A stretch of 64,000 nt of DNA from positions 16,627 to 80,626 of the IMG/VR virus record IMGVR_UViG_3300005805_000068. One strand, written 5' to 3'. The position numbers and the translations under genes are program-made. The DNA is from a virus (Duplodnaviria > Caudoviricetes). This document shows, piece by piece, positions 16,447-64,000 of this stretch (its first letter is position 1; each line of letters starts with the position of its first letter). The notes beneath the pieces were generated by a model, which did not search any database, was not told the origin of the DNA, and worked only from the letters and a program-made list of their open reading frames with translations.

Positions 16447-17246
16447 TAAGATTATTATTCTTAGTGCTGTTATTAACAGCGTCAACTTTATGTTATGCTC
16501 ACTCTAGCATAGTCTACAATTATACAGATAATGTTCTAGAGTACGAAGAAGATATGGACAAACCAAGACCAATCGCATCGTTAACAAAGTTAATGACAGC
16601 ACTATTAATAGTTGAATCGAATCTTGACCTTGCTAAAGAAGTAAAATATAAAGGCGGTATTTGGCAAACACGCATGGTATCAAGACAAGAGTTATTAGAT
16701 TCTTTATTGATACGCAGCGACAATGCAGCGGCTGATGCATTAGCTGATAGTTGGCCAGGTGGGCGTACTTACTTTATTAAAGAAATGAATTTTCGTGCAG
16801 AACAATTAGGCATGACTAAAACTAAATTTTTTGATCCGCACGGATTAGACAAAAGAAATATCAGTTGTGCCAAAGACCTTGCCAGATTAATTGTTGAAGA
16901 TAGTAAACACAAATTAATTGCAAATACCTCAACAAACAAATACCTAATGATCGAACGTAAGAATAAGAAAAAAATCTCTTATGTGTCTATTGGAAACACC
17001 AATAAGAATCTATTATTTGAATTTGACGAAATTATTTTATCCAAAACAGGTTGGACTAACCCAGCGGGTAGATGTCTTGCTTTGATGGTTCAAAAAGGCG
17101 ATAAAAAATATGTTATCGTTATTTTGGGCGAATCAACTCCTAAAGATCGTGAAGAAAAAGCTAGACAACTTATATTCAACTATGCTATAATGAATGAAAC
17201 AGAAAAGGATAGACATGAAAATAGGTTTCACTTGTTCCACTTTTGA
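16443..17246 (+). CDS. Peptidase S11 D-Ala-D-Ala carboxy/endopeptidase (low-MW penicillin-binding protein) with signal peptide
   Basis: SxxK (IASLTKLMT), SxN (RSDN), KTG (SKTGWT) and FFDPHGL motifs. Hydrophobic N-terminus. Confidence 0.9.
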   Translation: MIRLLFLVLLLTASTLCYAHSSIVYNYTDNVLEYEEDMDKPRPIASLTKLMTALLIVESNLDLAKEVKYKGGIWQTRMVSRQELLDSLLIRSDNAAADALADSWPGGRTYFIKEMNFRAEQLGMTKTKFFDPHGLDKRNISCAKDLARLIVEDSKHKLIANTSTNKYLMIERKNKKKISYVSIGNTNKNLLFEFDEIILSKTGWTNPAGRCLALMVQKGDKKYVIVILGESTPKDREEKARQLIFNYAIMNETEKDRHENRFHLFHF

Positions 17247-29944: not shown

Positions 29945-30282
29945 TGAAGTTATTCGAACTGTTTAGTCCTATCGGAGCTCCTAAGGAAGCCGATCAAGAT
30001 ATTGATTGGATAGGTGACTTAAAATTTTATATCGACAATGATGAAAAAATGCTCAGCAATTATTTCTTTCCTGCTGTTAAGCGTCATCAAGAATACAAAG
30101 GCAATCCAAATGCCTATAAAATTTATATCAGACCTATTGAAAAATGTTTAGATAGTTATTGTCAACAATATGAAATCCAAGATCGAGAAGTAAAATTTCC
30201 TAAGGAACAGCTTATTGAATTGGCTAAGCAAATGGCTGAAGAACAAGAAAAGCACATAGACCACGGCGACTATGAGAATTAA
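29944..30282 (+). CDS. Hypothetical protein with MKLFELF N-terminus
   Basis: TAATG coupling gives a start at 29944. Confidence 0.6.
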   Translation: MKLFELFSPIGAPKEADQDIDWIGDLKFYIDNDEKMLSNYFFPAVKRHQEYKGNPNAYKIYIRPIEKCLDSYCQQYEIQDREVKFPKEQLIELAKQMAEEQEKHIDHGDYEN

Positions 30283-31366
30283 CGAACTATTTGAAGCAGA
30301 TTCGAAGCATGCCGCATTTTGTTTCGGCAGAATGAATCCTCCTACGGTTGGACATAAACAATTACTAAACACTGTTAAAAGTGTAGGTGGGGATCATTTC
30401 ATTTTTGTTAGCCAATCACAAGATCCTAAAAAAAATCCTTTAGATTATTCTACCAAAATTAAGTTTATGAAACTTATGTTTCCCGAACATGCTAAAAATA
30501 TTGTAGAAGATTCAAGTCTAAATACGGTTGTAAAAGTTGCTAGTTACGTGTATAATTTAGGTTATAGAAATGCAACCTTTGTAGCAGGGAGTGATAGATT
30601 AGATACTATGAAACAGCTACTTACGCAATACAATGGAGTAGAAGGCAAAGCACACGGTTTCTATCAGTTCGATGTACTTGATTTTAAGTCAAGCGGTGAT
30701 CGTGAAGACGGAGCGGAAGGAGTTGCTGGAGTTAGTGCGAGCAACGCTCGAGTTGCCGCAGCTAATAATGATTTAGAAGCATTTAAAGAATCAACAGGTG
30801 CTGGACAGTATGCAGAACCACTGTTCAAAGCAGTTCGTCAAGGTATGGGAATACAAGAAGGACTAGAAGAAGGAAAATTTAGAAGTAGAGATGTTGAAGA
30901 ACGATTGATACCTAATAAAAAATTAAATGATCTAAAAAGTAAATATCTTCCCGATTGGGAAATGTTGGATCACAGAATTCTACAGGCAAAGTATGTTGCT
31001 AAGGATCATAGACATGCCGAGGAATTGGTTTCTTACATAAACAAAATCAGTGAAGAAATGGATCATTTTGCTGAAGTTACCCAAGATGTTGCAGAAGTAA
31101 CTGTTAAGACTTCAACCTTTGATGTTAAAGGTTTAACTGTGTTAGATTTTAAACTAGCATTAAAAGTTGACAAATATGCAGAGTCTAACGATATCGAACA
31201 GGTAAGAATGCAAGGTAATTTTGGTATGCACGAAGGCAAGAAAGATGCCTGCTATAACAAAGTTAAAAGTCGTGTCAAAGTATGGCCTTCAGCTTATGCC
31301 AGCGGACAGTTAGTGCAATGTCGCAAACGCGGTGCTGCCAATTGGGGAACAGGTAAGAAAAAATGA
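30272..31366 (+). CDS. Fusion of an HxGH nucleotidyltransferase-like domain, a pterin-4a-carbinolamine dehydratase-like domain and a basic Cys module
   Basis: FGRMNPPTVGH; W...LQAKY..KD......INKISEEMDHFAEV....VTVKTSTFDVKGLTVLDFKLA; DACY.KVKSR.KVWPSAYASG.LVQCRK. Confidence 0.65.
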   Translation: MRINELFEADSKHAAFCFGRMNPPTVGHKQLLNTVKSVGGDHFIFVSQSQDPKKNPLDYSTKIKFMKLMFPEHAKNIVEDSSLNTVVKVASYVYNLGYRNATFVAGSDRLDTMKQLLTQYNGVEGKAHGFYQFDVLDFKSSGDREDGAEGVAGVSASNARVAAANNDLEAFKESTGAGQYAEPLFKAVRQGMGIQEGLEEGKFRSRDVEERLIPNKKLNDLKSKYLPDWEMLDHRILQAKYVAKDHRHAEELVSYINKISEEMDHFAEVTQDVAEVTVKTSTFDVKGLTVLDFKLALKVDKYAESNDIEQVRMQGNFGMHEGKKDACYNKVKSRVKVWPSAYASGQLVQCRKRGAANWGTGKKK

Positions 31367-35554: not shown

Positions 35555-38224
35555 ATGAGTTACGTAGATGCTTTCTATGATAGAGAGCAAGATATCATTC
35601 GCATCGTTGAACGTGATGAAAATGGTCAACGACATTTCAAAGAATATGCACCAAGGCATATCTTCTACTTTGCAGATCCAAAAGGTAAACATCAGAGTAT
35701 TAAAGGAGAACCTCTTACTCGTGTAACCTGTAAAAACATCAAAGAATTACGCAAAGAACTTGCTATTCATAATAACAAAAAACTTTATGAAAGCGATATC
35801 AATCCAATCTATCGTTGTTTAGAAGATAACTATCTTAATGTTGATGCTCCAAAATTAAATATAGCGTTCTTCGACATTGAGGTTGACTTTGACCCAGACC
35901 GTGGGTATGCAAGTCCAGATGATGCGTTCATGCCAATTACTGCTATTGCAGTACATCTACAATGGTTGGATACTTTAGTTTGTCTAGCACTTCCACCTAA
36001 AACATTAAGTATGGAAGAAGCGCAACGTCAAGTTGAAGAATTTCCTAATACCTTACTCTTCGAAAGCGAAGCAGACATGCTTGATACCTTTCTTAATTTA
36101 ATCGAAGATGCTGATGTGTTAAGTGGTTGGAACTCAGAAGGCTTTGATATTCCATATACCGTTAATCGTGTGACCAAGGTGCTGTCAAAAGAAGACACAC
36201 GCAGATTTTGCTTATGGAATCAATATCCTAAAAAACGTGAATATGAAAAATACGGTAAGATGTCAGTAACATATGACTTTATCGGACGTGTTCATATGGA
36301 TAGTTTAGAATTATATCGAAAATATACCTATGAAGAAAGACATACCTATCGATTAGATGCTATTGCTGAATACGAATTAGGTAAAACTAAAACACAATAT
36401 GAAGGCACCCTAGATCAATTATACAACAATGACTTTAAAAAGTTTATCGAATATAATAGAAATGACACAATGCTTCTTGACAATTTAGATAAGAAACTTA
36501 AATTCTTAGATCTTGCTAATACAATCGCGCATGAAAATACAGTTTTACTTCAAACTACAATGGGTGCAGTAGCAGTTACTGAACAAGCTATTATCAATGA
36601 AGCACATCGCAGAGGTATGATTGTTCCTAATCGTTTAAGAATGGATGATCGAGGTGATACACAGGCTGCTGGTGCGTATGTTGCCTACCCTAAAAAAGGC
36701 ATTCACGAATGGATCGGCTCACTGGATATTAATTCACTGTATCCATCTGCAATTCGTGCATTAAATATGGGTCCAGAAACTATCGTTGGACAGTTACGTC
36801 AAGATGGTACTAAAGATTATATCGCTGCGGAAATAGGCAAGGGGAAATCATTCGCTAGTGCCTGGGAAGGTATGTTTGGCAGTGTTGAATACTTATCTGT
36901 AATGAATAAAGAAGTAGGCAGAGAAATTACCATCGATTGGGAAGGCGGAGGCGAAGATACTCTTAGTGCGTCACAAGTTTATGATCTAATATTCGAAAGC
37001 GGTCAACCTTGGATGCTTTCAGCTAACGGTACTATCTTTACTTATGAAACAGAGGGTATTATTCCAGGATTACTCAAACGTTGGTATGCTGAACGTAAAG
37101 ACATGCAGGCCAAACTAAAAGAATGTATCAAGAATGGTAATAAGATTGAAGAAGAATACTGGGACAAGCGACAGCTAGTTAAGAAGATTAACCTAAATAG
37201 TTTGTATGGTGCTATTCTTAATGCAGGATGTCGTTTCTTTGATAATCGTATCGGTCAGTCTACTACGCTTACTGGGCGACAAGTAGTTAAACACATGGCT
37301 GCAAAAATCAATGAGATCATCACAGGCGAGTATGATTATGTAGGTAAAGCAGTTATTTACGGTGACACTGACTCATGTTATTTTTCAGCATATTCTACTC
37401 TACGCAAAGAAATCGAATCGGGAAATATTCCATGGAATAGGGAAAGTGTTGTTGAATTGTACGATACTATCGCCGAAGAAGTTAACGGAACGTTTGTTAA
37501 ATTCATGGGTGATGCGTTTCACTGTCCTAAAACACGCGGAGAAGTTATTAAAGGTGGACGTGAGATCGTAGCAAGTAAAGGATTATTCATTACTAAAAAA
37601 CGTTATGCCGTATTATATTATGACAAAGAAGGCAAACGTTCAGATACAGATGGTAAGCCTGGAAAGATAAAGGCTATGGGGCTTGACCTAAAACGTTCAG
37701 ATACACCTGTGGTTATTCAAGATTTCTTAAGCGAAGTGTTGACCAAAGTGCTAAATGGAGCACCAAAAGAAGAAGTTTTAGACTATATCACTGATTTTAG
37801 AACAGAGTTTAAAACAAGACCTGGTTGGGAAAAAGGCAGTCCTAAACGTGCCAATAATATTTCAGAATATCGTGAAAAAGAAAAGAAAGCAGGTAAAACT
37901 AACATGCCCGGACACGTTCGTGCTAGTTTAAATTGGAATACTCTAAAACGTATGTATGAAGACAAATATTCGATGAATATTGTTGACGGTGCGAAAGTAA
38001 TTGTATGTAAACTTAAAGATAATCCGATGGCATATACCTCGGTGGCATATCCTGTAGATGAATTACGTTTACCACAATGGTTCAAAGACTTACCATTCGA
38101 CGATGCTGAAATGGAAAGTACCGTTATTGATGAAAAGTTAGGGAACTTAATTGGTGTTCTAGAATGGGATATCAGTTCAACACGCAGTGATAACAATTTT
38201 AACAAATTATTTGATTTTGAATAA
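35555..38224 (+). CDS. polB: Family B DNA polymerase (T4 gp43-like) with 3'-5' exonuclease
   Basis: FFDIEV, GWNSEGFD, SLDINSLYPS, KKINLNSLYG, YGDTDS and KKRYA motifs. No intein or intron interruption evident. Confidence 0.97.
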   Translation: MSYVDAFYDREQDIIRIVERDENGQRHFKEYAPRHIFYFADPKGKHQSIKGEPLTRVTCKNIKELRKELAIHNNKKLYESDINPIYRCLEDNYLNVDAPKLNIAFFDIEVDFDPDRGYASPDDAFMPITAIAVHLQWLDTLVCLALPPKTLSMEEAQRQVEEFPNTLLFESEADMLDTFLNLIEDADVLSGWNSEGFDIPYTVNRVTKVLSKEDTRRFCLWNQYPKKREYEKYGKMSVTYDFIGRVHMDSLELYRKYTYEERHTYRLDAIAEYELGKTKTQYEGTLDQLYNNDFKKFIEYNRNDTMLLDNLDKKLKFLDLANTIAHENTVLLQTTMGAVAVTEQAIINEAHRRGMIVPNRLRMDDRGDTQAAGAYVAYPKKGIHEWIGSLDINSLYPSAIRALNMGPETIVGQLRQDGTKDYIAAEIGKGKSFASAWEGMFGSVEYLSVMNKEVGREITIDWEGGGEDTLSASQVYDLIFESGQPWMLSANGTIFTYETEGIIPGLLKRWYAERKDMQAKLKECIKNGNKIEEEYWDKRQLVKKINLNSLYGAILNAGCRFFDNRIGQSTTLTGRQVVKHMAAKINEIITGEYDYVGKAVIYGDTDSCYFSAYSTLRKEIESGNIPWNRESVVELYDTIAEEVNGTFVKFMGDAFHCPKTRGEVIKGGREIVASKGLFITKKRYAVLYYDKEGKRSDTDGKPGKIKAMGLDLKRSDTPVVIQDFLSEVLTKVLNGAPKEEVLDYITDFRTEFKTRPGWEKGSPKRANNISEYREKEKKAGKTNMPGHVRASLNWNTLKRMYEDKYSMNIVDGAKVIVCKLKDNPMAYTSVAYPVDELRLPQWFKDLPFDDAEMESTVIDEKLGNLIGVLEWDISSTRSDNNFNKLFDFE

Positions 38225-41496: not shown

Positions 41497-41783
41497 AATT
41501 CTTAAGACGCTGGATCAATAATTGGTTAAACACAGACGATTATGATGATTTAGTCTGTAGATCTGAAACTCCTTCTATAGGGTATAACACTTTCGAAACT
41601 CAAGGATTTAATCTGCGTATCTGGCGTGCTGATGGTGGAACTATCGTAGAAAGCAATTATTACAGTAGAAAAAAAGATCAAGGCAATAATAAATTGTATA
41701 TTATCACTGATGAAAAAGATCTCGGACAAGAGCTTGCTAAGATTGTTACCATCGAAGGATTGAAACACAATGAGCATTATTAG
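41493..41783 (+). CDS. Hypothetical protein
   Basis: 96 aa with ATGA overlap. Confidence 0.6.
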   Translation: MKFLRRWINNWLNTDDYDDLVCRSETPSIGYNTFETQGFNLRIWRADGGTIVESNYYSRKKDQGNNKLYIITDEKDLGQELAKIVTIEGLKHNEHY

Positions 41784-42147
41784 ACAAGATATAAGACCTG
41801 CTAAATTTATTTGGGTTACTTTTCAAAAGGAAGGTATTCATAAATATCCGGCAGCATTAGAAGATCCTAATCTAGCAGATGTTAGTTTCTTAGGATATCC
41901 ACATAGACATATATTCCATTTTAAAGTATGGATCGGTGTTGAGCATAATGATCGAGATATTGAATTTATACAATTTAAACGTTGGTTAGAATCATTATAC
42001 AACGATGCTACATTAAGTTTAGACTATAAAAGTTGTGAAATGATGTCAGATGATTTGTATGAAAAGATTCACGAAAGATATTCAGATCGTGAGGTTTGGA
42101 TTGAAGTAAGTGAAGACGGAGAGAACGGTTCGTTCATAAAATATTAA
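41770..42147 (+). CDS. QueD/PTPS-like T-fold protein (putative CPH4 synthase)
   Basis: H...HRHIFHFKV.I...DRDIEF...K....SCE metal-binding pattern. Context with folE and queE. Confidence 0.6.
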   Translation: MSIIRQDIRPAKFIWVTFQKEGIHKYPAALEDPNLADVSFLGYPHRHIFHFKVWIGVEHNDRDIEFIQFKRWLESLYNDATLSLDYKSCEMMSDDLYEKIHERYSDREVWIEVSEDGENGSFIKY

Positions 42148-43244
42148 TGTCTAAAATATTCTTAGTTGATCTAGAAGCAGTTGAATCGAGGTATACAGGA
42201 CAATGGAAATTTCATGTACCTAATCTATTAAAGGAGAAAGGACACGACATTCATATCATCAGTGGACCCGCTGATATTCCAAGTGCTACTACCCCTGGTG
42301 CTTTTCTTAATTTTGGTGGCACTAATATATACAAAGCCCGTCAAGTCGAGCAGATCGGAAGGTTGTTTTGCTCTGGTGCTGTCAAGCCTGGTGATCACTT
42401 TCTTTTTACTGATGCATGGCATCCTGGAATTATTAATCTAAAATATATGAGCGAGTTGCTTGGAATAAAAGTAACCATTCATGCACTTTGGCATGCTGGT
42501 AGTTATGACCCACAAGATTTTTTAGGCAGATTGATTGGTAATGCTCCTTGGGTTAGAAATGCTGAAAAGAGTTTCTTTCATGCTATTGATCATAACTACT
42601 TTGCTACAGACTTCCATATTAAAATGTTCTTTGAAAATCTACTACAAAGTGGATTGATGTTAGAACATGCTTGGGCAGAAGAAGAATTTAAAGAACTACA
42701 AGAAGAAGGAAAGATTGTACGCACAGGATGGCCTATGGAATATATGTCAGACACGTTGCTTATGTATAAAAACATGCCTAAGCGTGATTTAATTTTGTTC
42801 CCACATCGTATTGCACCAGAAAAACAGGTTGAGATTTTCCGTGATTTGAAAGAACATTTAACTCAATACGAATTTGTTATTTGTCAAGATCAACAACTTA
42901 CAAAGAACGCATATCATAATTTGTTAGGTGAAGCAAAATTAGTATTCAGTGCTAACTTGCAAGAAACTTTAGGTATTAGTATGTATGAAGGTAGTCTAGT
43001 AGATTCTATTCCTATGGTACCAGATCGTTTATCATATAAAGAAATGTTTGCAGACGTTTGGAAATATCCAAGTGAATGGACAGAATCTTGGGGAATGTAT
43101 GTTAAACATCGAAAAGAACTATGTGATAAAATTATAGATTTTATGGAAAATTATAGAGAATATTCTAAATCTATTCCACAACAATCACATAGTTTAAATG
43201 AGCACTTTTTTAGTTGCAAACCGCTTCTAGAGAAGTTAAAATAA
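42147..43244 (+). CDS. GT-B fold glycosyltransferase
   Basis: FPHRIAPEKQ and ANLQETLGISMYEG (ExxG...E) GT4-like C-terminal motifs. Confidence 0.75.
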   Translation: MSKIFLVDLEAVESRYTGQWKFHVPNLLKEKGHDIHIISGPADIPSATTPGAFLNFGGTNIYKARQVEQIGRLFCSGAVKPGDHFLFTDAWHPGIINLKYMSELLGIKVTIHALWHAGSYDPQDFLGRLIGNAPWVRNAEKSFFHAIDHNYFATDFHIKMFFENLLQSGLMLEHAWAEEEFKELQEEGKIVRTGWPMEYMSDTLLMYKNMPKRDLILFPHRIAPEKQVEIFRDLKEHLTQYEFVICQDQQLTKNAYHNLLGEAKLVFSANLQETLGISMYEGSLVDSIPMVPDRLSYKEMFADVWKYPSEWTESWGMYVKHRKELCDKIIDFMENYREYSKSIPQQSHSLNEHFFSCKPLLEKLK

Positions 43245-43282: not shown

Positions 43283-43981
43283 ATGTCAGAAAAGCATCTA
43301 AGCGAAGCCATTCGCGAACAAATGAAGCAACATGGTAAAAGATTCTGGGCAGGTGATAATATCTCAGAATATATTACTAGTCCTCAAGATAAAGAAATCT
43401 TAATCAACGAAGCAACTATTGCATTTGAAAAGGTACTAGATACCTTGCTGATTGATCGAGAAAATGATCCAAATTCAAAAGGTACAGCTCGTCGTCTTGC
43501 TAAAATGTATTTTAATGAAATCATGGCTGGTCGATACGAACCATCTCCTGATGCTACAAGTTTTCCTAATGATACTGATGATCGATATGAAGGTATGCTC
43601 GTAGTACGTAGTGAACTTCGTAGCATGTGCAGTCATCATCATCAACCAGTCGCTGGAGTTGCTTATATTGGTATTATTGCAGCTCAACATCTAATTGGAT
43701 TATCTAAATATACACGTATCGCTCAATGGTGTGCTCGTCGTGGTACACTACAAGAAGAACTTGCCAACGATATTGCCCGTGAAATAATGAAAGCCACAGG
43801 TAGTGAGAATGTAGCAGTCTATATTCAAGCAACTCATGGTTGCTGTGAGAATCGTGGTATTATGGCACATAGTTCACTTACACAAACAACAGTGTTAAGA
43901 GGAGCATTTAAAGACGATCCAAATACTAAAAAAGAATTCTTTGATAACATTAAACTGCAACAAGAATTTGCTCCGAGATAA
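43283..43981 (+). CDS. folE: GTP cyclohydrolase I
   Basis: SMCSHHHQP, GLSKYTRI, LQEEL and HGCCENRG motifs. GGAG SD before ATG 43283. Confidence 0.93.
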   Translation: MSEKHLSEAIREQMKQHGKRFWAGDNISEYITSPQDKEILINEATIAFEKVLDTLLIDRENDPNSKGTARRLAKMYFNEIMAGRYEPSPDATSFPNDTDDRYEGMLVVRSELRSMCSHHHQPVAGVAYIGIIAAQHLIGLSKYTRIAQWCARRGTLQEELANDIAREIMKATGSENVAVYIQATHGCCENRGIMAHSSLTQTTVLRGAFKDDPNTKKEFFDNIKLQQEFAPR

Positions 43982-44076
43982 TGAAACTTAAAGGTATAAA
44001 CAAATATACTATTTTAATTTTGGCAATATTCTTATTGATATGTCTAATTACCATTCCTATATTAAAAATTTTATGA
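43981..44076 (+). CDS. 31-aa single-pass membrane peptide (not in ORF track)
   Basis: MKLKGINKYTILILAIFLLICLITIPILKIL. TAATG overlap with folE and ATGA overlap with the next gene. Confidence 0.5.
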   Translation: MKLKGINKYTILILAIFLLICLITIPILKIL

Positions 44077-44507
44077 TAATTCCCTTACGCGATGATCTAA
44101 TGGTACAGGAACAACTACCAGCCACAAACCCATACATACGAGGATGGCAACATATGGTAGCAGTGATCATGCTCAACCAAACTGGTCGTATTCCTGTCAA
44201 ACAGATCCTTCCTTTATTCCTGAGCAAGTGGCCTACTCCGCAACAATTTGCCGCTTTTGGCGAGGAACAAGCTGTCAAGGATATCATTTGGAGTCTAGGT
44301 ATGATGAATGTAAGATATACTAGACTAAAGAGAATGACTCAGGACTACTTAATATGGGACATGAACGATGCTACAAAATTATACGGTATTGGAAAATACG
44401 GTAGTGATAGTTATGAAATATTTTTCAAACATAATTACACCGTACATCCTACAGACAAAGAATTAATTAGATATTTAGAGGAAATTTATGAACAAGCGTG
44501 TAGTTAG
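44073..44507 (+). CDS. MBD4-like HhH DNA glycosylase
   Basis: W..MVAVIMLNQT...KWPTP...LG....R...LYGIGKYGSDSYEIF...VHPTDKEL..Y closely resembles the recalled MBD4 catalytic domain (LHGIGKYGNDSYRIF..VHPEDHKL). Confidence 0.8.
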   Translation: MIIPLRDDLMVQEQLPATNPYIRGWQHMVAVIMLNQTGRIPVKQILPLFLSKWPTPQQFAAFGEEQAVKDIIWSLGMMNVRYTRLKRMTQDYLIWDMNDATKLYGIGKYGSDSYEIFFKHNYTVHPTDKELIRYLEEIYEQACS

Positions 44508-45078
44508 TTGGAATGAGTATCAAGGACTAGTAGGAAAAATTGCCCGAGATATTGTTATTAGCGGATGGCGACCGGATTATATTGTAGGAATCACTAGAGG
44601 TGGTTGTTTACCTGCGGTAATGTTAAGTCATTATTTTGATGTGCCTTGCGAAACACTTAAAGTTAGTCTTCGCGATCATTCATCAACTGAAAGTAATACT
44701 TGGATGGCTGAAGATGCGTTAGGATCTCAATCGAGAGAAAGATTTGTCGCAGATGAAAACGATATTGGTAGTATATTAGAAACCGCTAGCGGATTATTAG
44801 AAGAAGGCGGTAATTTTAAAAATATTCTAATTGTTGACGATATGAACGATAGTGGTGCTACTATTAATTGGATAATCCAAGATTGGCAGGCTAGTTGTTT
44901 CCCTGGTGATCCTAGTTGGGAAGAGGTTTGGAATGGTAATGTAAAATTTGCTGTGTTGTTCGACAATTTAGGGTCTAACTGTAATGTTAAAATGGATTTT
45001 GTCGGGGAAGAAGTTAACAAAGAAGCAGAAAATAACATTTGGATTGATTTTCCGTATGAAGATTGGTGGGCAAAATGA
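44488..45078 (+). CDS. Purine phosphoribosyltransferase (Gpt/Hpt-like)
   Basis: IVGITRGG, the PRPP motif ILIVDDMNDSGAT, and WIDFPYE. Confidence 0.85.
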   Translation: MNKRVVSWNEYQGLVGKIARDIVISGWRPDYIVGITRGGCLPAVMLSHYFDVPCETLKVSLRDHSSTESNTWMAEDALGSQSRERFVADENDIGSILETASGLLEEGGNFKNILIVDDMNDSGATINWIIQDWQASCFPGDPSWEEVWNGNVKFAVLFDNLGSNCNVKMDFVGEEVNKEAENNIWIDFPYEDWWAK

Positions 45079-45290
45079 GTAAGATAAAAGTATATTGTAC
45101 AGACAAAGATAAATTTGTTGATGCCGATGTTCTTAATATTCGTGAAGGTCAGTTTGTAGAAATAGCATTGAATACTGTTAAGGTTCGATTAAATTACAAT
45201 AAAAACGATTATGTTGGCAGTATGGCTGGTTTAGAATTTGTTCTTAAAGAAGATCAATTACCTCGCAATTATAGAGAATATACAAGATAA
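45075..45290 (+). CDS. Hypothetical protein
   Basis: ATGA overlap gives a start at 45075. Confidence 0.55.
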   Translation: MSKIKVYCTDKDKFVDADVLNIREGQFVEIALNTVKVRLNYNKNDYVGSMAGLEFVLKEDQLPRNYREYTR

Positions 45291-46108
45291 TGTCTAGAAG
45301 CATTTTTATAGGTGATAGTCACACATGTGGGTACTGGAGCCATCCTACTAAAAGAGGCCCAGGATCTTATACCTATTGGAACGACAATAATTATGCTGAA
45401 TCGTACGCTAAACAAAATAATAAACCAACAGCTATCTATTCAATGGCGGGCGTGACTAATCGAGTTTATACAGATTGGTTGAAATCAATGTTTGAAAAAT
45501 ACGACGACATTGATGAAGTTTTTATTTGCCTTACAGCATTCAATAGATTTGTATTGGGATTTGATGATAAGTTAAGTGATGATGTAGCATCAGTAGATCA
45601 TTTTAGTAAAAAGATGGAAAATTCAGACGGATTCATCGATCGATATTCAGATCTAACTGTTTCTGACAAACACATACAGTTGTTCAATAAACCTACCTAC
45701 GAAGATTACGATCAATTTCCCGGAATTGATCTCAACATGGATCAAGGATTAACCATCCCCGATCTTAGAAAAAATACGTTTATGCAGGTTAAATTATTTT
45801 TTGAACTTAATACCTTTGTAGAAAAAAGAGATTTTTTGTTAAATGTCTATACTTGGGATAATATCTGTGCAGATCATGGTGCTAAACTTTATCTATTTAA
45901 TTTTACAGAACGATTGAGATTTCCAAAATCTTTTGAATATTATGGAAAGTTAAAGACTACGATTTTATCTCCGCTAACTGTTGAAAAATTTTTTAAAGAT
46001 AAAAATATAGATCATAATAATTATCTTATAGAGGATAAAGAACATTACAATAAATTCTTTCATGATCTAATTGCTGAAAAATATATACCATGGCTGAAAA
46101 ATCTTTAA
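45290..46108 (+). CDS. SGNH/GDSL-like hydrolase or acyltransferase
   Basis: FIGDSHTCG, SMAGVTN and C-terminal DKEHY. Confidence 0.6.
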   Translation: MSRSIFIGDSHTCGYWSHPTKRGPGSYTYWNDNNYAESYAKQNNKPTAIYSMAGVTNRVYTDWLKSMFEKYDDIDEVFICLTAFNRFVLGFDDKLSDDVASVDHFSKKMENSDGFIDRYSDLTVSDKHIQLFNKPTYEDYDQFPGIDLNMDQGLTIPDLRKNTFMQVKLFFELNTFVEKRDFLLNVYTWDNICADHGAKLYLFNFTERLRFPKSFEYYGKLKTTILSPLTVEKFFKDKNIDHNNYLIEDKEHYNKFFHDLIAEKYIPWLKNL

Positions 46109-46686
46109 AATTACTAATTGCCGGCGATAGTTTTGCAGCCAAATGGCCAACTAAAGAATCTAGTTGGGTAGATCTATTGTCTAGAAATTATATTGTTACA
46201 AACGTTGCGCAGGCCGGCGTTGGCGAATATAAAATTCTTAAACAAATACAAAGTGTAGATTTAAAAGAATTTGACTGTATAATTGTAAATCATACCAGCC
46301 CTAGCAGATTACATACTCCAAATCATCCTGTGCATAAAGAGGGATTTCATAAAGATTGTGATTTAATAATCTCAGACCTATTAGAACACAATTCGTGGTT
46401 TAATAAAAGTTTAAAGACAGCTAAAGATTGGTTCGAATATCATTATGACGATGCCTATCAGATCGATATGTATAATCTGATAAGAAAAGAAATTAATGAC
46501 CTAATCGATATTCCCTATATCGCCACCGGACATCTAAAGATTGTTACTCGATTGTCTATAGAAAAAAATTATGTAGATTTTAGTAATTTCTGGGATTTAG
46601 AAAAAGGAAATGTTAATCATTACAATGAATTTGGTAATAGATATGTATACAAAAAAATAAACAAAAAATTGTGGGAAATAATTTGA
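46090..46686 (+). CDS. SGNH/GDSL-like hydrolase or acyltransferase
   Basis: IAGDSFAA, NVAQAGVG and VNHYN..GN. Confidence 0.6.
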   Translation: MAEKSLKLLIAGDSFAAKWPTKESSWVDLLSRNYIVTNVAQAGVGEYKILKQIQSVDLKEFDCIIVNHTSPSRLHTPNHPVHKEGFHKDCDLIISDLLEHNSWFNKSLKTAKDWFEYHYDDAYQIDMYNLIRKEINDLIDIPYIATGHLKIVTRLSIEKNYVDFSNFWDLEKGNVNHYNEFGNRYVYKKINKKLWEII

Positions 46687-46939: not shown

Positions 46940-47785
46940 ATGAGCAAAATTAAAATAGCAGAATTATTTTATAGCATACAAGGCGAAGGACGTTACATGG
47001 GTGTACCGTCTGTTTTCTTACGTACATTTGGCTGTAACTTTAAGTGTGCTGGCTTTGGTATGCCAAAAGGAGTATTAAGTGAAGAATACCTCACAGTGGA
47101 TCCAGAAAATTATACTGAATATGGAGGACTTCCTCTCGTTAGTACAGGGTGTGATAGTTATGCTAGTTGGGATCCTCGCTTTAAGCATCTTAGTCCCCTT
47201 ATGGATACTAGTGCTATTGCTGAAAAAATCGTTGAAACTCTTCCGTATAAAGAATGGAGAGACGAGCATCTAGTTATCACAGGCGGTGAGCCATTATTAG
47301 GATGGCAACGTGCTTACCCGGAATTATTGATGCATGATAAAATGCGATCATTAAAAGAACTTACGTTCGAAACAAACGGTACTCAGGAAATAAGCAAAGA
47401 ATTTAAAACTTGGTTACGTGACTATTGGATTGAAAATAAAGGGTATCAAAGTTTAACATTTAGCGTTAGTGCTAAATTGAGTGTTAGTGGAGAGCCTGCT
47501 AGTGAAGCAATACGTCCAGATATCGTGTGTTCATATCAAGAGCTTGGTCATACGTATCTTAAGTTTGTTATTGCCACTGAAGACGATGCTGAAGAAGCAT
47601 TAGAAGCGGTTGATATATATAGAGCAGAAGGATTTGATGGACATGTTTATCTAATGCCAGTGGGAGGTATTGAGAGCGTTTATACATTAAACAATAAACG
47701 TGTAGCAGAGCTAGCAATGAAAATGGGCTTGCGTTATAGCGATAGACTACAAGTACCGTTATTTAAAAACGCATGGGGAACATAA
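46940..47785 (+). CDS. queE: 7-carboxy-7-deazaguanine synthase (radical SAM)
   Basis: ELFYSIQGEG...FLRTFGCNFKC...CDS.ASW, VITGGEPLL, ETNGT and RLQVPL motifs. Confidence 0.92.
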   Translation: MSKIKIAELFYSIQGEGRYMGVPSVFLRTFGCNFKCAGFGMPKGVLSEEYLTVDPENYTEYGGLPLVSTGCDSYASWDPRFKHLSPLMDTSAIAEKIVETLPYKEWRDEHLVITGGEPLLGWQRAYPELLMHDKMRSLKELTFETNGTQEISKEFKTWLRDYWIENKGYQSLTFSVSAKLSVSGEPASEAIRPDIVCSYQELGHTYLKFVIATEDDAEEALEAVDIYRAEGFDGHVYLMPVGGIESVYTLNNKRVAELAMKMGLRYSDRLQVPLFKNAWGT

Positions 47786-48207
47786 TGAAAAAAGTTATTA
47801 AAAAATTATTTGGCATTGATAAGGTTGAAGAAAGTATCGCCTTAGCTACTAAAAAACTAGAAGAAACAGAAGCACAATTAGCCAAAGCCAAAGAAGATGC
47901 AGAATTAGTGACACTAAATGAAAAAGATCGTGCCACACGCAAAAAAGAACCTTGGGTTGGGGTAATTAATACTCATGTTAATAAAGATAACATTCGAAAT
48001 GGATTTTTTGAACTTGATTGGAACAAATATTTTGTTGAAAAATTAAAAAATGAAGGGTATGGATTAGAAGGTGATCCCGAAGAAGAGATTGTAGATCGTT
48101 GGTTCCGTGAATTGTGTGCTAATGTAGTTGTTGACGGTGACTATGGTGGTGCGATCATTGAAACAGGATCACTTGATGTTAACGCTGTTAAGAAAGCAAA
48201 CGAATGA
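47782..48207 (+). CDS. Conserved hypothetical phage protein
   Basis: ATG at 47782. FFELDWN..F...L...GY.G pattern. Confidence 0.65.
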   Translation: MMKKVIKKLFGIDKVEESIALATKKLEETEAQLAKAKEDAELVTLNEKDRATRKKEPWVGVINTHVNKDNIRNGFFELDWNKYFVEKLKNEGYGLEGDPEEEIVDRWFRELCANVVVDGDYGGAIIETGSLDVNAVKKANE

Positions 48208-49211
48208 CATATATTTTAGTAGACACAGCAAATACATTTTTCCGTGCTAGGCATGTTATCAACGGTGACGCTGATATCAAATTAGGCATGGCGTTTCATA
48301 TTACATTAAATTCTATTCGTAAAGCATGGCAACAGTTTAACGGTACTCACGTTATATTCTGTTTAGAAGGTCGCAGTTGGCGTAAAGATTTTTATACTCC
48401 ATACAAAGCACAGCGAGCAGAAGCACGTGCAGCACACACAGAACGTGAACAAGAAGAAGATCGAGTATTTTGGGAAGCCTTTGATACATTTAAAGAATTT
48501 ATTAATGATAAAACTAATTGTACTGTTTTACAAAATCCACGATTAGAAGCAGATGATTTAATTGCAGGATGGATACAAGGGCATCCAGACGATAATCATG
48601 TGATTATTTCAACAGATACAGATTTTGCCCAATTAATTGCTCCTAACGTCAAACAATATAATGGTGTGATGGAAACTACTATTACACACGAAGGTTACTT
48701 TGATGACAAAGGTAAATCTATTATCGATAAGAAAACGCAGGAGCCTAAGGCAGCACCTAATCCAGAATGGCAGTTATTTGAAAAATGTATGCGTGGCGAT
48801 ACATCGGATAATGTGTTTTCAGCATATCCAGGTGTACGTACCAAAGGCACAAGTAAAAAGGTCGGACTTACAGAAGCTTTTGAAGATCGTAATAACAAAG
48901 GATTTAACTGGAATAATTTAATGTTACAACGTTGGACCGATCACGAAGGTAAGGAACACCGTGTACTAGAAGATTATGAACGAAATCGTAGATTAATTGA
49001 TCTAAATCATCAGCCTGATGATATTAAAGAAATTATTAAAGAAACTATCAGATTGGGAACTAGTGCAAATAAAAATATTAGTCAGGTTGGAATTAGATTA
49101 ATGAAATTCTGTCACTTGTATGATCTTAAAAAGATTTCAGATCAAGCACAGAGCTATGCGGAGCCATTAAATGCAAGATATGTTGTTGAATCAAAAACCA
49201 TGTCTGTATGA
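48204..49211 (+). CDS. T4-type RNase H / 5'-3' exonuclease
   Basis: ILVDTAN.FFR, EGRSWRK..Y..YK..R, EADD, ISTDTDF.QL and GDTSDNV motifs. Confidence 0.9.
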   Translation: MTYILVDTANTFFRARHVINGDADIKLGMAFHITLNSIRKAWQQFNGTHVIFCLEGRSWRKDFYTPYKAQRAEARAAHTEREQEEDRVFWEAFDTFKEFINDKTNCTVLQNPRLEADDLIAGWIQGHPDDNHVIISTDTDFAQLIAPNVKQYNGVMETTITHEGYFDDKGKSIIDKKTQEPKAAPNPEWQLFEKCMRGDTSDNVFSAYPGVRTKGTSKKVGLTEAFEDRNNKGFNWNNLMLQRWTDHEGKEHRVLEDYERNRRLIDLNHQPDDIKEIIKETIRLGTSANKNISQVGIRLMKFCHLYDLKKISDQAQSYAEPLNARYVVESKTMSV

Positions 49212-52691: not shown

Positions 52692-53559
52692 TGATATATC
52701 CTTTAAGTTTACAAAATTCGTAAATTTCTTCCGCCATTATTCCATATCCTGTTTGGGTAGGGTGCATACAATTAGTAATATATTCTGTAGGATATTTTAA
52801 CTTACTATAATATTCATAAAAATTTCCGTTTGACAATTCAGGATGTCCGTCATAATTTAATAATAATTCCATAAAACTTTTACAGCCTTTCGGATACAAA
52901 AATTTATCCCAAGGCATCGATTCTATTAAATTAGCGTGTTCTGATCCTAGATGCTCATAAAAATATTCTTTATGTACTCGTTGGTCAAATGCGCAAGAAA
53001 CTATAAAATCAAATCCATGAGCCTTGGCGAACATTTCACCTTCTCTAATATTCATCAATGTTTCAATTAGTATAAATTTTTCACTCCAGAGATCTTTAGC
53101 GTATGCTTCCCATAGTTGTTTATTTGTGCTTTTCTCATCTTGAGGATTAGGCCACATGGTATAGAAATGATGATCTAGATATTCTTTATTAATAAAGTCG
53201 AATCGTTCTATTCCACTTAACATCAGTATCATTATACCGCCAGAGGCGTTATCTAATTTAAGAGCAGGGTTCAAGTATAATTCTTTAACAGCAGCTCGAT
53301 TTCCTTTACCTGTGATACCAAGATTAATAGGGATATAATCCGGTAAATGATTACGACTTAATTGACATGGCCAACTATTGTAGTACATTTCATCGTATAG
53401 ATCTTTAGGAACTTTCAGTGGATCAATAAATCCATCATACTTATTATAGGTAGACTTCGACCAACTGCCAACACCTTCGGTAAAACTATCACCGAGTCCA
53501 ATTATGATCTTAGAACCTTTAGGTATATCAGGATTTCTATATTTTGGCATTCTTATCAT
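52684..53559 (-). CDS. SGNH-like hydrolase or acyltransferase
   Basis: GLGDSFTEG, NLGITGKGN and CMHPT..GY. Confidence 0.65.
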   Translation of the reverse strand: MIRMPKYRNPDIPKGSKIIIGLGDSFTEGVGSWSKSTYNKYDGFIDPLKVPKDLYDEMYYNSWPCQLSRNHLPDYIPINLGITGKGNRAAVKELYLNPALKLDNASGGIMILMLSGIERFDFINKEYLDHHFYTMWPNPQDEKSTNKQLWEAYAKDLWSEKFILIETLMNIREGEMFAKAHGFDFIVSCAFDQRVHKEYFYEHLGSEHANLIESMPWDKFLYPKGCKSFMELLLNYDGHPELSNGNFYEYYSKLKYPTEYITNCMHPTQTGYGIMAEEIYEFCKLKGYIND

Positions 53560-54818
53560 AAATTAAAATATTCTTTGTAATGATTTTTTAATTCAATACA
53601 AGCAGGATTTTCTCTTTTAGAATTTCTTTGGAATGTATTATAGTTATGTATCAGAATGTCTTTCATCGATTCATACCAAGCAAATTTATTCTGTATAGAT
53701 TGTACTTGCTTAATAGATTCGATTATCGCTTCAAATCTTTCAAAGGTAGGTAATTCATCATAGGATTCGTCTATAAATCCTTCAAACGTTCTGTACCCCA
53801 TTTCACGTAATTTTTTTAAACTTCCTTTATTACCCACTACAATAAAAGGATGTAGGCACGCTATAGGTTTAAAAACTTTTTCACTTAAAAATAAAGTATG
53901 ATCTTGATCACCAAAACTTGCTTCAGATACTACCGAAATCCAACTGTCTAAACACACAGTATCTAATATTCTTCTAATATAAAAATTGTCATTGTGTTCT
54001 ATGTTAGATTTTCCATGAACTAATAATGGCAGTATTTTATTGGCATTTTCAGAAATTAATTGGCTTGGAACACGACCTTCAAAATATGTTTGAGTATATT
54101 CATATGGATTCATACTCACCAAACCTTGATCTAATAAATTTGCTTCATAAAGATATATGTAGAACCAGATTCTATGTGCCCTGAGTCTTTTTTGAAGGCA
54201 ATTATATGTTTTAATCTTGTCTACATTTTCTTTTTTATATTGAATATGTTTTTCAACTGTAATATCTAATTTCATTTCTTTTGATATAAAATGAACATCT
54301 TCTTCAAAATGTGCATAGGGCAATACATTCATTCTTTCAGAAATATTGTGTTCGTTGGCCCAATTTGTATATTGTTCTTTACAGAGAAGATTTCCTGTAA
54401 TGTATATTATTGCTCTAGGATTAATATTATAGTCTTTACATTCTGTGTGAAAATATTCCCACAACCAAGTTGTCTGATATCCTTCAAGGCTTTGATCTAA
54501 TAACAACATCGCACGACCTTCTCTAAGATCTGTTAGGTATTGATCATTTAGATAAGAGAACCCATTTTTAACTTCATTTCGAAATGCTAAAGATGTTCCT
54601 GCCCAATTGTCTGGATGGTGGTTTACACCTGAACAGATCATATAATGAGATGGAAGATTCTGTATAGTCATTGCCTTATTTTCTTGACCTCTAGGCCCAT
54701 ATACCATTAATTGTGTTATTGGTGAGGTCGCAAATCTTTTTATACCAGAGCGATTAACATCGGGGCAATTTGTAAAATTTTCTAAATTTTCTAAATTTTC
54801 AAATACAAAATTAATCAC
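53556..54818 (-). CDS. Putative glycosyltransferase-like protein
   Basis: C-terminal WISVVSE...LSEKVFKPI...PFIVVG..GSL..LREMGY.TF, reminiscent of GT10/GT47-type nucleotide-sugar binding ends (weak). Confidence 0.45.
   Translation of the reverse strand: MINFVFENLENLENFTNCPDVNRSGIKRFATSPITQLMVYGPRGQENKAMTIQNLPSHYMICSGVNHHPDNWAGTSLAFRNEVKNGFSYLNDQYLTDLREGRAMLLLDQSLEGYQTTWLWEYFHTECKDYNINPRAIIYITGNLLCKEQYTNWANEHNISERMNVLPYAHFEEDVHFISKEMKLDITVEKHIQYKKENVDKIKTYNCLQKRLRAHRIWFYIYLYEANLLDQGLVSMNPYEYTQTYFEGRVPSQLISENANKILPLLVHGKSNIEHNDNFYIRRILDTVCLDSWISVVSEASFGDQDHTLFLSEKVFKPIACLHPFIVVGNKGSLKKLREMGYRTFEGFIDESYDELPTFERFEAIIESIKQVQSIQNKFAWYESMKDILIHNYNTFQRNSKRENPACIELKNHYKEYFNL

Positions 54819-61450: not shown

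Positions 61451-64000
<2,550 letters not shown>

Follow-up and report, generated by a model that had tools for sequence, protein, structure and literature searches.

A stand-alone MBD4-type DNA glycosylase gene within the 7-deazaguanine cluster of a T4-like giant phage

Why does a relative of MBD4, usually regarded as a eukaryotic enzyme, lie among the deazaguanine genes of an uncultured giant phage from a lake, and does it take part in the modification? The question is raised by a glycosylase gene (Table 1) in a stretch of viral DNA (Duplodnaviria; Caudoviricetes) of 64,000 nucleotides, here called the window, which corresponds to positions 16,627 to 80,626 of IMG/VR record IMGVR_UViG_3300005805_000068. 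The record is 80.6 kb long and is estimated to be 23% complete. Based on sequence, predicted structure and gene neighbourhoods, the glycosylase is probably an accessory repair enzyme for uracil or thymine opposite guanine (here deazaguanine), encoded in a plastic region of DNA metabolism. This reading is preferred because the features needed for excision are kept, because the gene is optional for the deazaguanine system, and because it travels with repair and nucleotide-sanitising genes.

The glycosylase domain and its active site

The window protein is confirmed as a real, intact, stand-alone glycosylase domain of the MBD4-type helix-hairpin-helix (HhH) class. A phmmer search against PDB chains matched 15 MBD4 glycosylase-domain sequences over 117 residues (E values of 3.1e-14 to 5e-13), and the next family, Endonuclease III, was reached only at E=0.4. 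A family profile of 48 sequences (profile A1) matched MBD4 over the whole domain at 7.2e-43, and MIG (1.7e-13), Nth (6e-12) and MutY (5e-9) in its N-terminal two thirds only, spanning approximately 90 of 138 profile positions. The Pfam HhH-GPD model scored 24.6 bits, slightly under its cut-off of 26.2; a PHROGs search with the protein returned no family and an NCBIfam search nothing beyond a 16-bit Nth match. The AlphaFold model has a mean predicted local distance difference test score (pLDDT) of 94, and its best 16 PDB fold matches are all MBD4 (TMt 0.81-0.85), compared with a TMt of approximately 0.45 for Endonuclease III/Nth-type structures (range 0.25-0.49 including the MIG/MutY group). 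The 144 amino acids (aa) include a single Cys, the model stops after the last helix, and there is therefore no 4Fe-4S loop. An initial annotation, made from the sequence alone, had described a minimal MBD4-like HhH glycosylase of about 144 aa with no iron-sulfur (Fe-S) motif, and the phmmer, profile and fold matches together with the single Cys agree with it on both counts. Selection on the gene is purifying (dN 0.031, dS 0.379, dN/dS 0.082), as measured against the 92%-identical copy on contig L004 only, dS being saturated in every other pair.

Two in-frame ATG codons are available as starts, at 44040 (155 aa) and at 44073 (144 aa plus stop), and the second is the best supported. It is preferred because six representatives of 50% clusters align their own residue 1 with residue 12 of the 155-aa form, because the orthologue on contig L106 begins with MIKPLRDDLMVQQQ, and because residues 1-10 of the 155-aa form are poorly modelled (block pLDDT 58). 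Residues are nevertheless numbered below on the 155-aa form.

In human MBD4, the available text of PMC3479182 describes a flipped-base pocket made of residues 447-449, 560-562, Leu466, Gly471 and Tyr540, in which the Val448 amide reads O4, Tyr540 reads O2, and Gln449 reads N3 and O2; the Q449A mutant is inactive. According to the same text, main-chain carbonyls of Arg468 and Leu506 contact N1 and N2 of the orphan guanine, entry of the 466-471 loop is from the minor-groove side, and the 5-hydroxymethyl group of 5-hydroxymethyluracil (5hmU) is not contacted.

Conservation of the corresponding residues was counted in an alignment of 110 family members with full coverage, of which 63 have fewer than 200 aa, 29 have at least 300 aa and the others are intermediate in length. 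The Asp of the VHPTD motif, named as catalytic in the initial annotation, is Asp139 and is kept in 109 of the 110 members, which supports that assignment. Pocket residues V22, Q23 and Y120 are kept in the window protein, and across the family the Gln is found in 88/110, the Glu that follows it in 89/110, and the hairpin Tyr (Tyr120) in 109/110, with both hairpin Gly residues near-invariant. Trp36 (106/110), Asn46 (104/110), Thr48 (106/110), Gly87 (110/110), Arg92 (103/110) and Leu142 (110/110) are also conserved, and at each of these, as at Tyr120 and Asp139, the window protein has the majority residue. Leu86 is also, by alignment, among the equivalents of the human MBD4 residues described above. 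Tyr stands where bifunctional HhH enzymes have the lyase Lys, as expected of a monofunctional glycosylase. Retention of the Val/Gln/Tyr uracil/thymine pocket argues against a purine target, since a site that reads a 2,4-dioxopyrimidine would be expected to exclude purines. The human Arg468 position is Gln in the window protein; the family has K in 40, Q in 33, R in 18 and L in 12 of the 110 members, with K in 23 of the 29 long eukaryote-type members. Because this site varies across the family, its Gln is not special, and it was rejected as an adaptation to deazaguanine.

The window protein is approximately 30% identical, domain-wide, to the mammalian MBD4/MED1 domain (human residues ~426-580; PDB 4DK9, 4E9E-H, 6VJW, 1NGN, 4EVV). 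The two share the fold, the catalytic Asp, the Gln/Val/Tyr pocket, the Leu-Asn-x-Thr wedge loop, the GIGKYG hairpin, and the lack of an Fe-S cluster. Unlike MBD4, the window protein stands alone without a methyl-CpG-binding domain (MBD) or linker, and thus is not MBD4 in architecture; it also has Gln for Arg468 and Glu for Lys562 (both sites variable family-wide) and is encoded by a phage, within a guanine-modification cluster. The MBD (PF01429) is present in the long family members P0202, P0225, P0230, P0257 and P0264. MIG (Mig.MthI), Endonuclease III and MutY belong to the same superfamily and have the N-terminal six-helix and HhH part in common with the window protein, which lacks their Fe-S cluster loop. 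MIG likewise has Tyr at the lyase position.

Linkage of the gene to the deazaguanine cluster

The glycosylase gene sits within a genuine QueC-less 7-deazaguanine cluster resembling the phiST type, in the replication region of a T4-like giant phage. The gene order is family B polymerase, a conserved 245-aa gene, a 539-aa protein, small genes, a 125-aa protein, a 365-aa gene and FolE, followed by the glycosylase, a purine-type phosphoribosyltransferase (PRTase), two genes without family, QueE, and RNase H. A location inside a modification cluster, as first proposed, is thus correct, with FolE, QueE, the PRTase, an enzyme of tRNA-guanine transglycosylase (TGT) fold and a phiST-related protein as its members.

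In relatives, linkage was followed from both sides. From the glycosylase side, a scan of viral contigs gave 62 loci at 58-92% identity, and one contig of a metagenome-assembled genome (MAG) brought the number to 63; single-protein scans of viral contigs for distant members added only 5 loci, and the whole sample of approximately 150 loci comes from one lineage. Within the fetched flanks of the 63 loci, QueE was present at 34, RNase H at 45, FolE at 21, PRTase at 20 and the transglycosylase at 7, counts that are limited by the contigs, many of which are only 4-6 kb long. No cluster gene was seen near the glycosylase in approximately 12 of the 63, and in record G003 the two are more than 100 kb apart. 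The MAG contig (L003) is a 4.6-kb contig in a Polynucleobacter MAG and contains a glycosylase gene (83%), QueE, a homologue of a 144-aa virion protein, RNase H and a 186-aa gene. It was the only relative from the scan of genome contigs and gives no evidence of a cellular homologue: the contig carries phage genes and represents phage sequence binned into a Polynucleobacter genome, a possible hint at the host.

From the cluster side, the best 80 of 588 transglycosylase relatives in viral contigs were examined. Thirty-five of these loci span FolE to QueE; the glycosylase lies between them in 21 and is absent there in 14, and PRTase is kept in 31. Whole-record searches of five of the 14 glycosylase-less records found no glycosylase anywhere (0/5), and one of the five is a 331.6 kb record, 93% complete, with the cluster present. 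The 57 open reading frames (ORFs) in eight glycosylase-less intervals belong to no glycosylase family and include PRTase, HIT, cupins, a cytidylyltransferase-like protein, PfkB kinase, MazG, Bax1-I and dCMP deaminase; no replacement for the missing gene was thus found in these eight intervals. The FolE-QueE interval is a variable slot and the glycosylase one optional occupant of it, because the gene is absent from 14/35 intervals and the contents vary elsewhere. The initial annotation had taken an absence of genomic linkage as evidence against its proposed roles. Linkage appears real, in that the gene adjoins cluster genes in several arrangements, but it is loose, as 14/35 intervals lack the gene, some carriers lack QueE and the gene has repair-type neighbours elsewhere, so that absence of linkage was only half borne out; all loci come from one lineage. 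Nucleotide metabolism is dense in this slot in other relatives also, for example a gene of the dCMP/cytidine deaminase family (L132, 9400-9918) and an IMP dehydrogenase/GMP reductase gene (L060, 3266-4285), inside or beside the interval.

Outside the interval, the glycosylase is mobile among repair, replication and nucleotide-sanitising genes. Its gene overlaps that of a UvdE UV-damage endonuclease in one locus (L005), is followed by a MazG-type pyrophosphohydrolase and ClpP in four (L045, L052, L055, L034), with an ATP-dependent DNA ligase further on in L045 and L055, and is flanked by ligase and ClpX in another (L031). A DenV-like pyrimidine-dimer glycosylase is found at most ~4 kb from the MBD4-type gene in L060 and L162, the order in L160 is QueE, small gene, glycosylase, RNase H, and that in L163 is glycosylase, small gene, PRTase, HIT, FolE. 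In approximately 23 distinct sequences the glycosylase comes after RNaseH-p186. On a FastTree tree of 86 sequences, context class changes at least 10 times by Fitch parsimony, compared with a mean of 30.3 and a minimum of 24 changes in 500 label shuffles, and the in-cluster position occurs in three separate lineages of the tree. Loci on the minus strand or with a match shorter than 115 residues were excluded from this tree, identical sequences were collapsed, five eukaryote-type proteins were trimmed to the domain, and the L087 row was left out (an 8-residue extraction artefact; the gene is intact). Context is thus largely inherited, yet has moved repeatedly.

A probable accessory repair role and its alternatives

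From the fold, catalytic Asp, pocket and DNA-binding loops, the protein is predicted to be an active monofunctional enzyme of the MBD4 family. Its substrate would be uracil, thymine or a 5-substituted uracil opposite a mispaired guanine, the guanine in this phage probably being 7-deazaguanine; the base would be flipped out and its glycosidic bond cut, so that an abasic site is left. An apurinic/apyrimidinic (AP) endonuclease, then phage polymerase, RNase H/FEN and ligase, would restore the cytosine. A 7-substituent lies in the major groove and should not block an MBD4-type enzyme; it would be tolerated because the enzyme approaches the orphan purine through the minor groove and reads it via N1 and N2. 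The glycosylase would be an optional anti-mutator repair gene of a giant freshwater T4-like phage lineage and no step in deazaguanine synthesis or insertion, and it would lie between FolE and QueE because that interval is plastic and takes up early genes of DNA and nucleotide metabolism. The roles proposed in the initial annotation, namely proofreading of modified versus unmodified guanine, attack on host DNA, and abasic sites for base exchange, found no support, given the retained pyrimidine pocket, the optional presence of the gene, its repair contexts and its carriers without QueE.

Several points weigh against an accessory repair role. With unmodified cytosine, a host uracil-DNA glycosylase could already remove uracil, and the selective need for a phage enzyme is then unaccounted for. 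No thymidylate-synthase-family or C5-methylase gene was found in four MBD4-positive long relatives, 61-80% complete. An AP endonuclease was not identified within the window. All four long MBD4-positive records that were searched (59-79% complete) also hold the transglycosylase and QueE, which could mean functional coupling beyond shared ancestry; a fifth MBD4-positive record, a 25% fragment, has neither. The glycosylase is near deazaguanine genes in at least four arrangements (with M for the glycosylase and x for a further gene: FolE-M-PRT, PRT-M-QueE, QueE-x-M and M-x-PRT-HIT). Finally, all of the related contigs represent one phage lineage, and the counts are not independent.

The main alternative is that the glycosylase belongs to a coupled module for modification and repair, retained because the G:C pairs of the phage bear major-groove modifications, 7-deazaguanine here and 5-methylcytosine in Xp12-like phages. 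Mismatch and deamination repair by the host would be poor on such DNA, and a minor-groove reader like MBD4 would be blind to the modification and so guard the modified pairs. Carriers outside the lineage bear on this. When 50,697 phage records were searched three times with tblastn, full-length members turned up only in three bacterial-phage lineages (relatives of Xanthomonas phage Xp12, Janthinobacterium phage Donnerlittchen and cyanophage S-TIM54; 28-42% identity across 82% or more of the protein) and an Aeropyrum virus, and the database annotation of the genes in the three is hypothetical, ENDO3c or endonuclease III. As in the window, these are small stand-alone proteins encoded in a phage DNA-metabolism region; unlike the window cluster, their genomes have thymidylate-synthase-family or C5-methylase genes, and QueE was not found in any of the three. 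In Xp12 and Donnerlittchen the glycosylase is immediately 5' of a hydrolase, a thymidylate-synthase-family gene, dCMP deaminase and DHFR, and Xp12 DNA has its cytosine fully as 5-methylcytosine according to the available text of PMC7653180. A complete marine record of 224.9 kb (G014) has the glycosylase and a thymidylate-synthase-like gene, and QueE was not found in it. The thymidylate-synthase-like gene of G014 (52959-54023) has a 396-aa frame with a Pfam match in two pieces, which suggests an insertion in the fold.

A coupled module would account for a location inside clusters that modify either partner of the G:C pair: the gene lies within the base-modification clusters of two unrelated systems (thymidylate synthase-dCMP deaminase-DHFR in Xp12 and Donnerlittchen, FolE-QueE here), and among the loci near QueE, FolE or PRTase in four arrangements are family members only 45-47% identical. 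The family is also rare in cultured phages, and all three of its bacterial-phage lineages have cytosine-C5-type enzymes. The contacts of human MBD4 in PMC3479182, as far as its available text describes them (orphan guanine at N1 and N2 only, minor-groove entry, the 5-substituent of 5hmU uncontacted), would suit such a guard, and a PDB entry, by its title, has MBD4 acting opposite O6-methylguanine. Against this, the glycosylase is optional in cluster-bearing relatives and has no match in PA5oct-like phages, which have the transglycosylase; among cultured records, the 13 with the transglycosylase and the 14 with the glycosylase do not overlap. The PF00303 gene and the C5-methylase of S-TIM54 are both elsewhere in the genome, apart from the glycosylase, and thymidylate-synthase genes are common in phages and therefore weak evidence of cytosine modification. 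The orphan-base loops have no clade-specific change, the deazaguanine-linked loci are one lineage and not independent, and shared ancestry with a shared plastic region fits the same data. The glycosylase is neither a constant component of 7-deazaguanine systems (21/35 intervals; PA5oct-like phages without a match) nor restricted to genomes with such a system (S-TIM54, Xp12, Donnerlittchen and G014 lack a detected QueE). We regard a coupled module as unlikely, while treating it as the strongest competitor of accessory repair. Cytosine modification as an explanation for the window lineage itself is unsupported, as PF00303 was found in 1/5 records (G002) and then 0/5, and PF00145 in 0/5 (records 23-93% complete).

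A role in the modification pathway or as a weapon, in which the enzyme would make abasic sites for base exchange, remove unmodified guanine for salvage by the PRTase, or attack host DNA, is very improbable. The glycosylase gene does overlap the purine-type PRTase gene, the two adjoin directly in either order in L019, L058 and L060, and a free base released by the glycosylase could be consumed by the PRTase. However, the conserved Gln/Val/Tyr pocket reads a 2,4-dioxopyrimidine and should not accommodate a purine, the cluster has its own TGT-fold enzyme, and guanine released by that transglycosylase already accounts for the PRTase. TGT/DpdA-type transglycosylases swap bases without a separate glycosylase. 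Moreover, the glycosylase is missing from the 93%-complete cluster-bearing genome and from 14/35 intervals, compared with PRTase in 31/35.

Least probable of all is a catalytically idle DNA-binding protein that shields modified DNA, or acts as a decoy, against host sensors with inactivated EndoIII-like domains. Hypermodified DNA of phages, that of PA5oct among them, is sensed by END nucleases of the host via an inactive EndoIII/Ogg1-like domain, which shows that HhH-GPD domains can read modified DNA, but PA5oct inhibits END with another protein, gp52 (available text of PMC12191111). The window glycosylase has its catalytic Asp and all pocket residues conserved, is under strong purifying selection, and shows no sign of catalytic loss.

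Surroundings of the gene and significance

Coordinates of the glycosylase, its motifs and the neighbouring genes are given in Table 1. The PRTase ATG overlaps the glycosylase gene, 20 nt inside its 3' end. Scanned for promoters and terminators, the surroundings of the glycosylase gene gave no informative signal: there were 61 promoter-like sites where 50.0 +/- 6.2 were expected, and 6 terminator-like sites where 5.3 were.

Table 1. Positions, in window coordinates, of the glycosylase gene, its active-site motifs and the genes around it.
Feature	Position	Strand	Remarks
T4-type family B DNA polymerase	35555..38224	+	
TGT-fold DNA transglycosylase candidate (DpdA-like), 539 aa	39027..40646	+	predicted fold
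125-aa protein, relative of a Cellulophaga phage phiST protein	41770..42147	+	33% identity, E 3e-9
365-aa gene kept in cluster	42147..43244	+	without family match
GTP cyclohydrolase I (FolE)	43283..43981	+	PF01227, 1.7e-40; ORF may begin at 43214
Glycosylase, longer ORF	44040..44507	+	155 aa, from upstream in-frame ATG
Glycosylase gene	44073..44507	+	144 aa + stop, from second in-frame ATG
Val-Gln-Glu	44103..44111	+	aligns with human MBD4 Val448-Gln449-Glu450; main-chain NH and Gln side chain read O4, N3 and O2 of the flipped base
Leu-Asn-Gln-Thr loop	44172..44183	+	aligns with human 466-469, minor-groove wedge loop
HhH Gly-rich hairpin LYGIGKYGSDSY	44379..44414	+	contains Tyr matching human Tyr540
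Catalytic Asp codon in VHPTD	44454..44456	+	matches human Asp560
Purine-type phosphoribosyltransferase (PRTase)	44488..45078	+	PF00156, 3.2e-12
QueE radical-SAM 7-carboxy-7-deazaguanine synthase	46940..47785	+	phrog_2076, 5.3e-52
RNase H / 5'-3' exonuclease (FEN type)	48204..49211	+	possible downstream base-excision-repair partner

The 539-aa protein has no match in Pfam or in a PDB sequence search, and thus differs from the TGTs of the PDB in having no detectable sequence similarity to them. Its AlphaFold model (pLDDT 75.7) has tRNA-guanine transglycosylases as all of its top 50 Foldseek matches (E ~1e-8, TMt 0.50-0.56). It is 43.5% identical to a protein of PA5oct, the DNA of which withstands restriction at G-containing sites (available text of PMC12191111). 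QueC was not seen within the window. The phiST-type QueC-less system consists of FolE, QueD, QueE, DpdL and DpdA3 in the main text of PMC10516641, and the window likewise has FolE, QueE, a small phiST-related protein and a TGT-fold enzyme. That main text never uses the term 'glycosylase' (0 occurrences), and the phiST-type system as described there therefore includes no glycosylase. The nearest family of the PRTase is xanthine PRTase (8e-08, far under the cut-off); a role in uracil salvage was rejected for it, the nearest family being of the xanthine/guanine type. It may return guanine released by the transglycosylase towards GTP, or may activate the deazaguanine base. The 125-aa protein we take to be a candidate T-fold protein of the QueD/DpdL type.

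Between the PRTase and QueE are two adjoining genes (45290-46108 and 46090-46686) that encode GDS(H/F) motifs at the N terminus, as is usual for SGNH hydrolases, a putative assignment made by motif only. The pair has no Pfam, NCBIfam or PHROG family and is found in few relatives (L004/L120, L089, L090, L096 and L123). Further upstream, a single ORF (30272-31366) contains a cytidylyltransferase-like domain (PF01467) and a pterin-4a-carbinolamine dehydratase domain (PF01329), an unusual combination, given that this phage makes a pterin-derived base as well. At the end of the contig, the final ORF (63395-64000, reverse strand) encodes the C-terminal portion of an ammonium transporter (PF00909, 3.1e-44; phrog_33847 also matches). 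Its stretch has a GC content of 0.487 compared with ~0.34 in its neighbours; the ORF is either an auxiliary gene of host origin or the product of an assembly join at this end.

Literature searches, with bioRxiv supplements and the supplementary tables of PMC10516641 outside their scope, found no paper on phage-encoded MBD4-type enzymes, and annotation pipelines already label some family members MBD4. It is conceivable, although doubtful, that MBD4-type glycosylases serve phages specifically to protect hypermodified G:C pairs, so that modification plus repair would be a recurrent two-part strategy not yet described. If so, deamination products would be removed from pairs with a major-groove-modified C (Xp12-like phages) or G (7-deazaguanine, possibly sugar-bearing), where host repair would fail, and phage genomes would be suggested as a reservoir of the enzyme that later guarded methylated CpG in eukaryotes.

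The analysis tells the optional passengers of a QueC-less deazaguanine system, widespread among giant freshwater phages, from its core genes, and so indicates which genes to include when the modification is reconstituted. For the MBD4 family, small stand-alone forms are abundant in phage metagenomes (5,962 matches at E <= 0.001; 1,045 representatives of 50% clusters). If the enzyme is tuned to modified G:C pairs, it would offer a simple tool for mismatch excision in 7-deazaguanine DNA.

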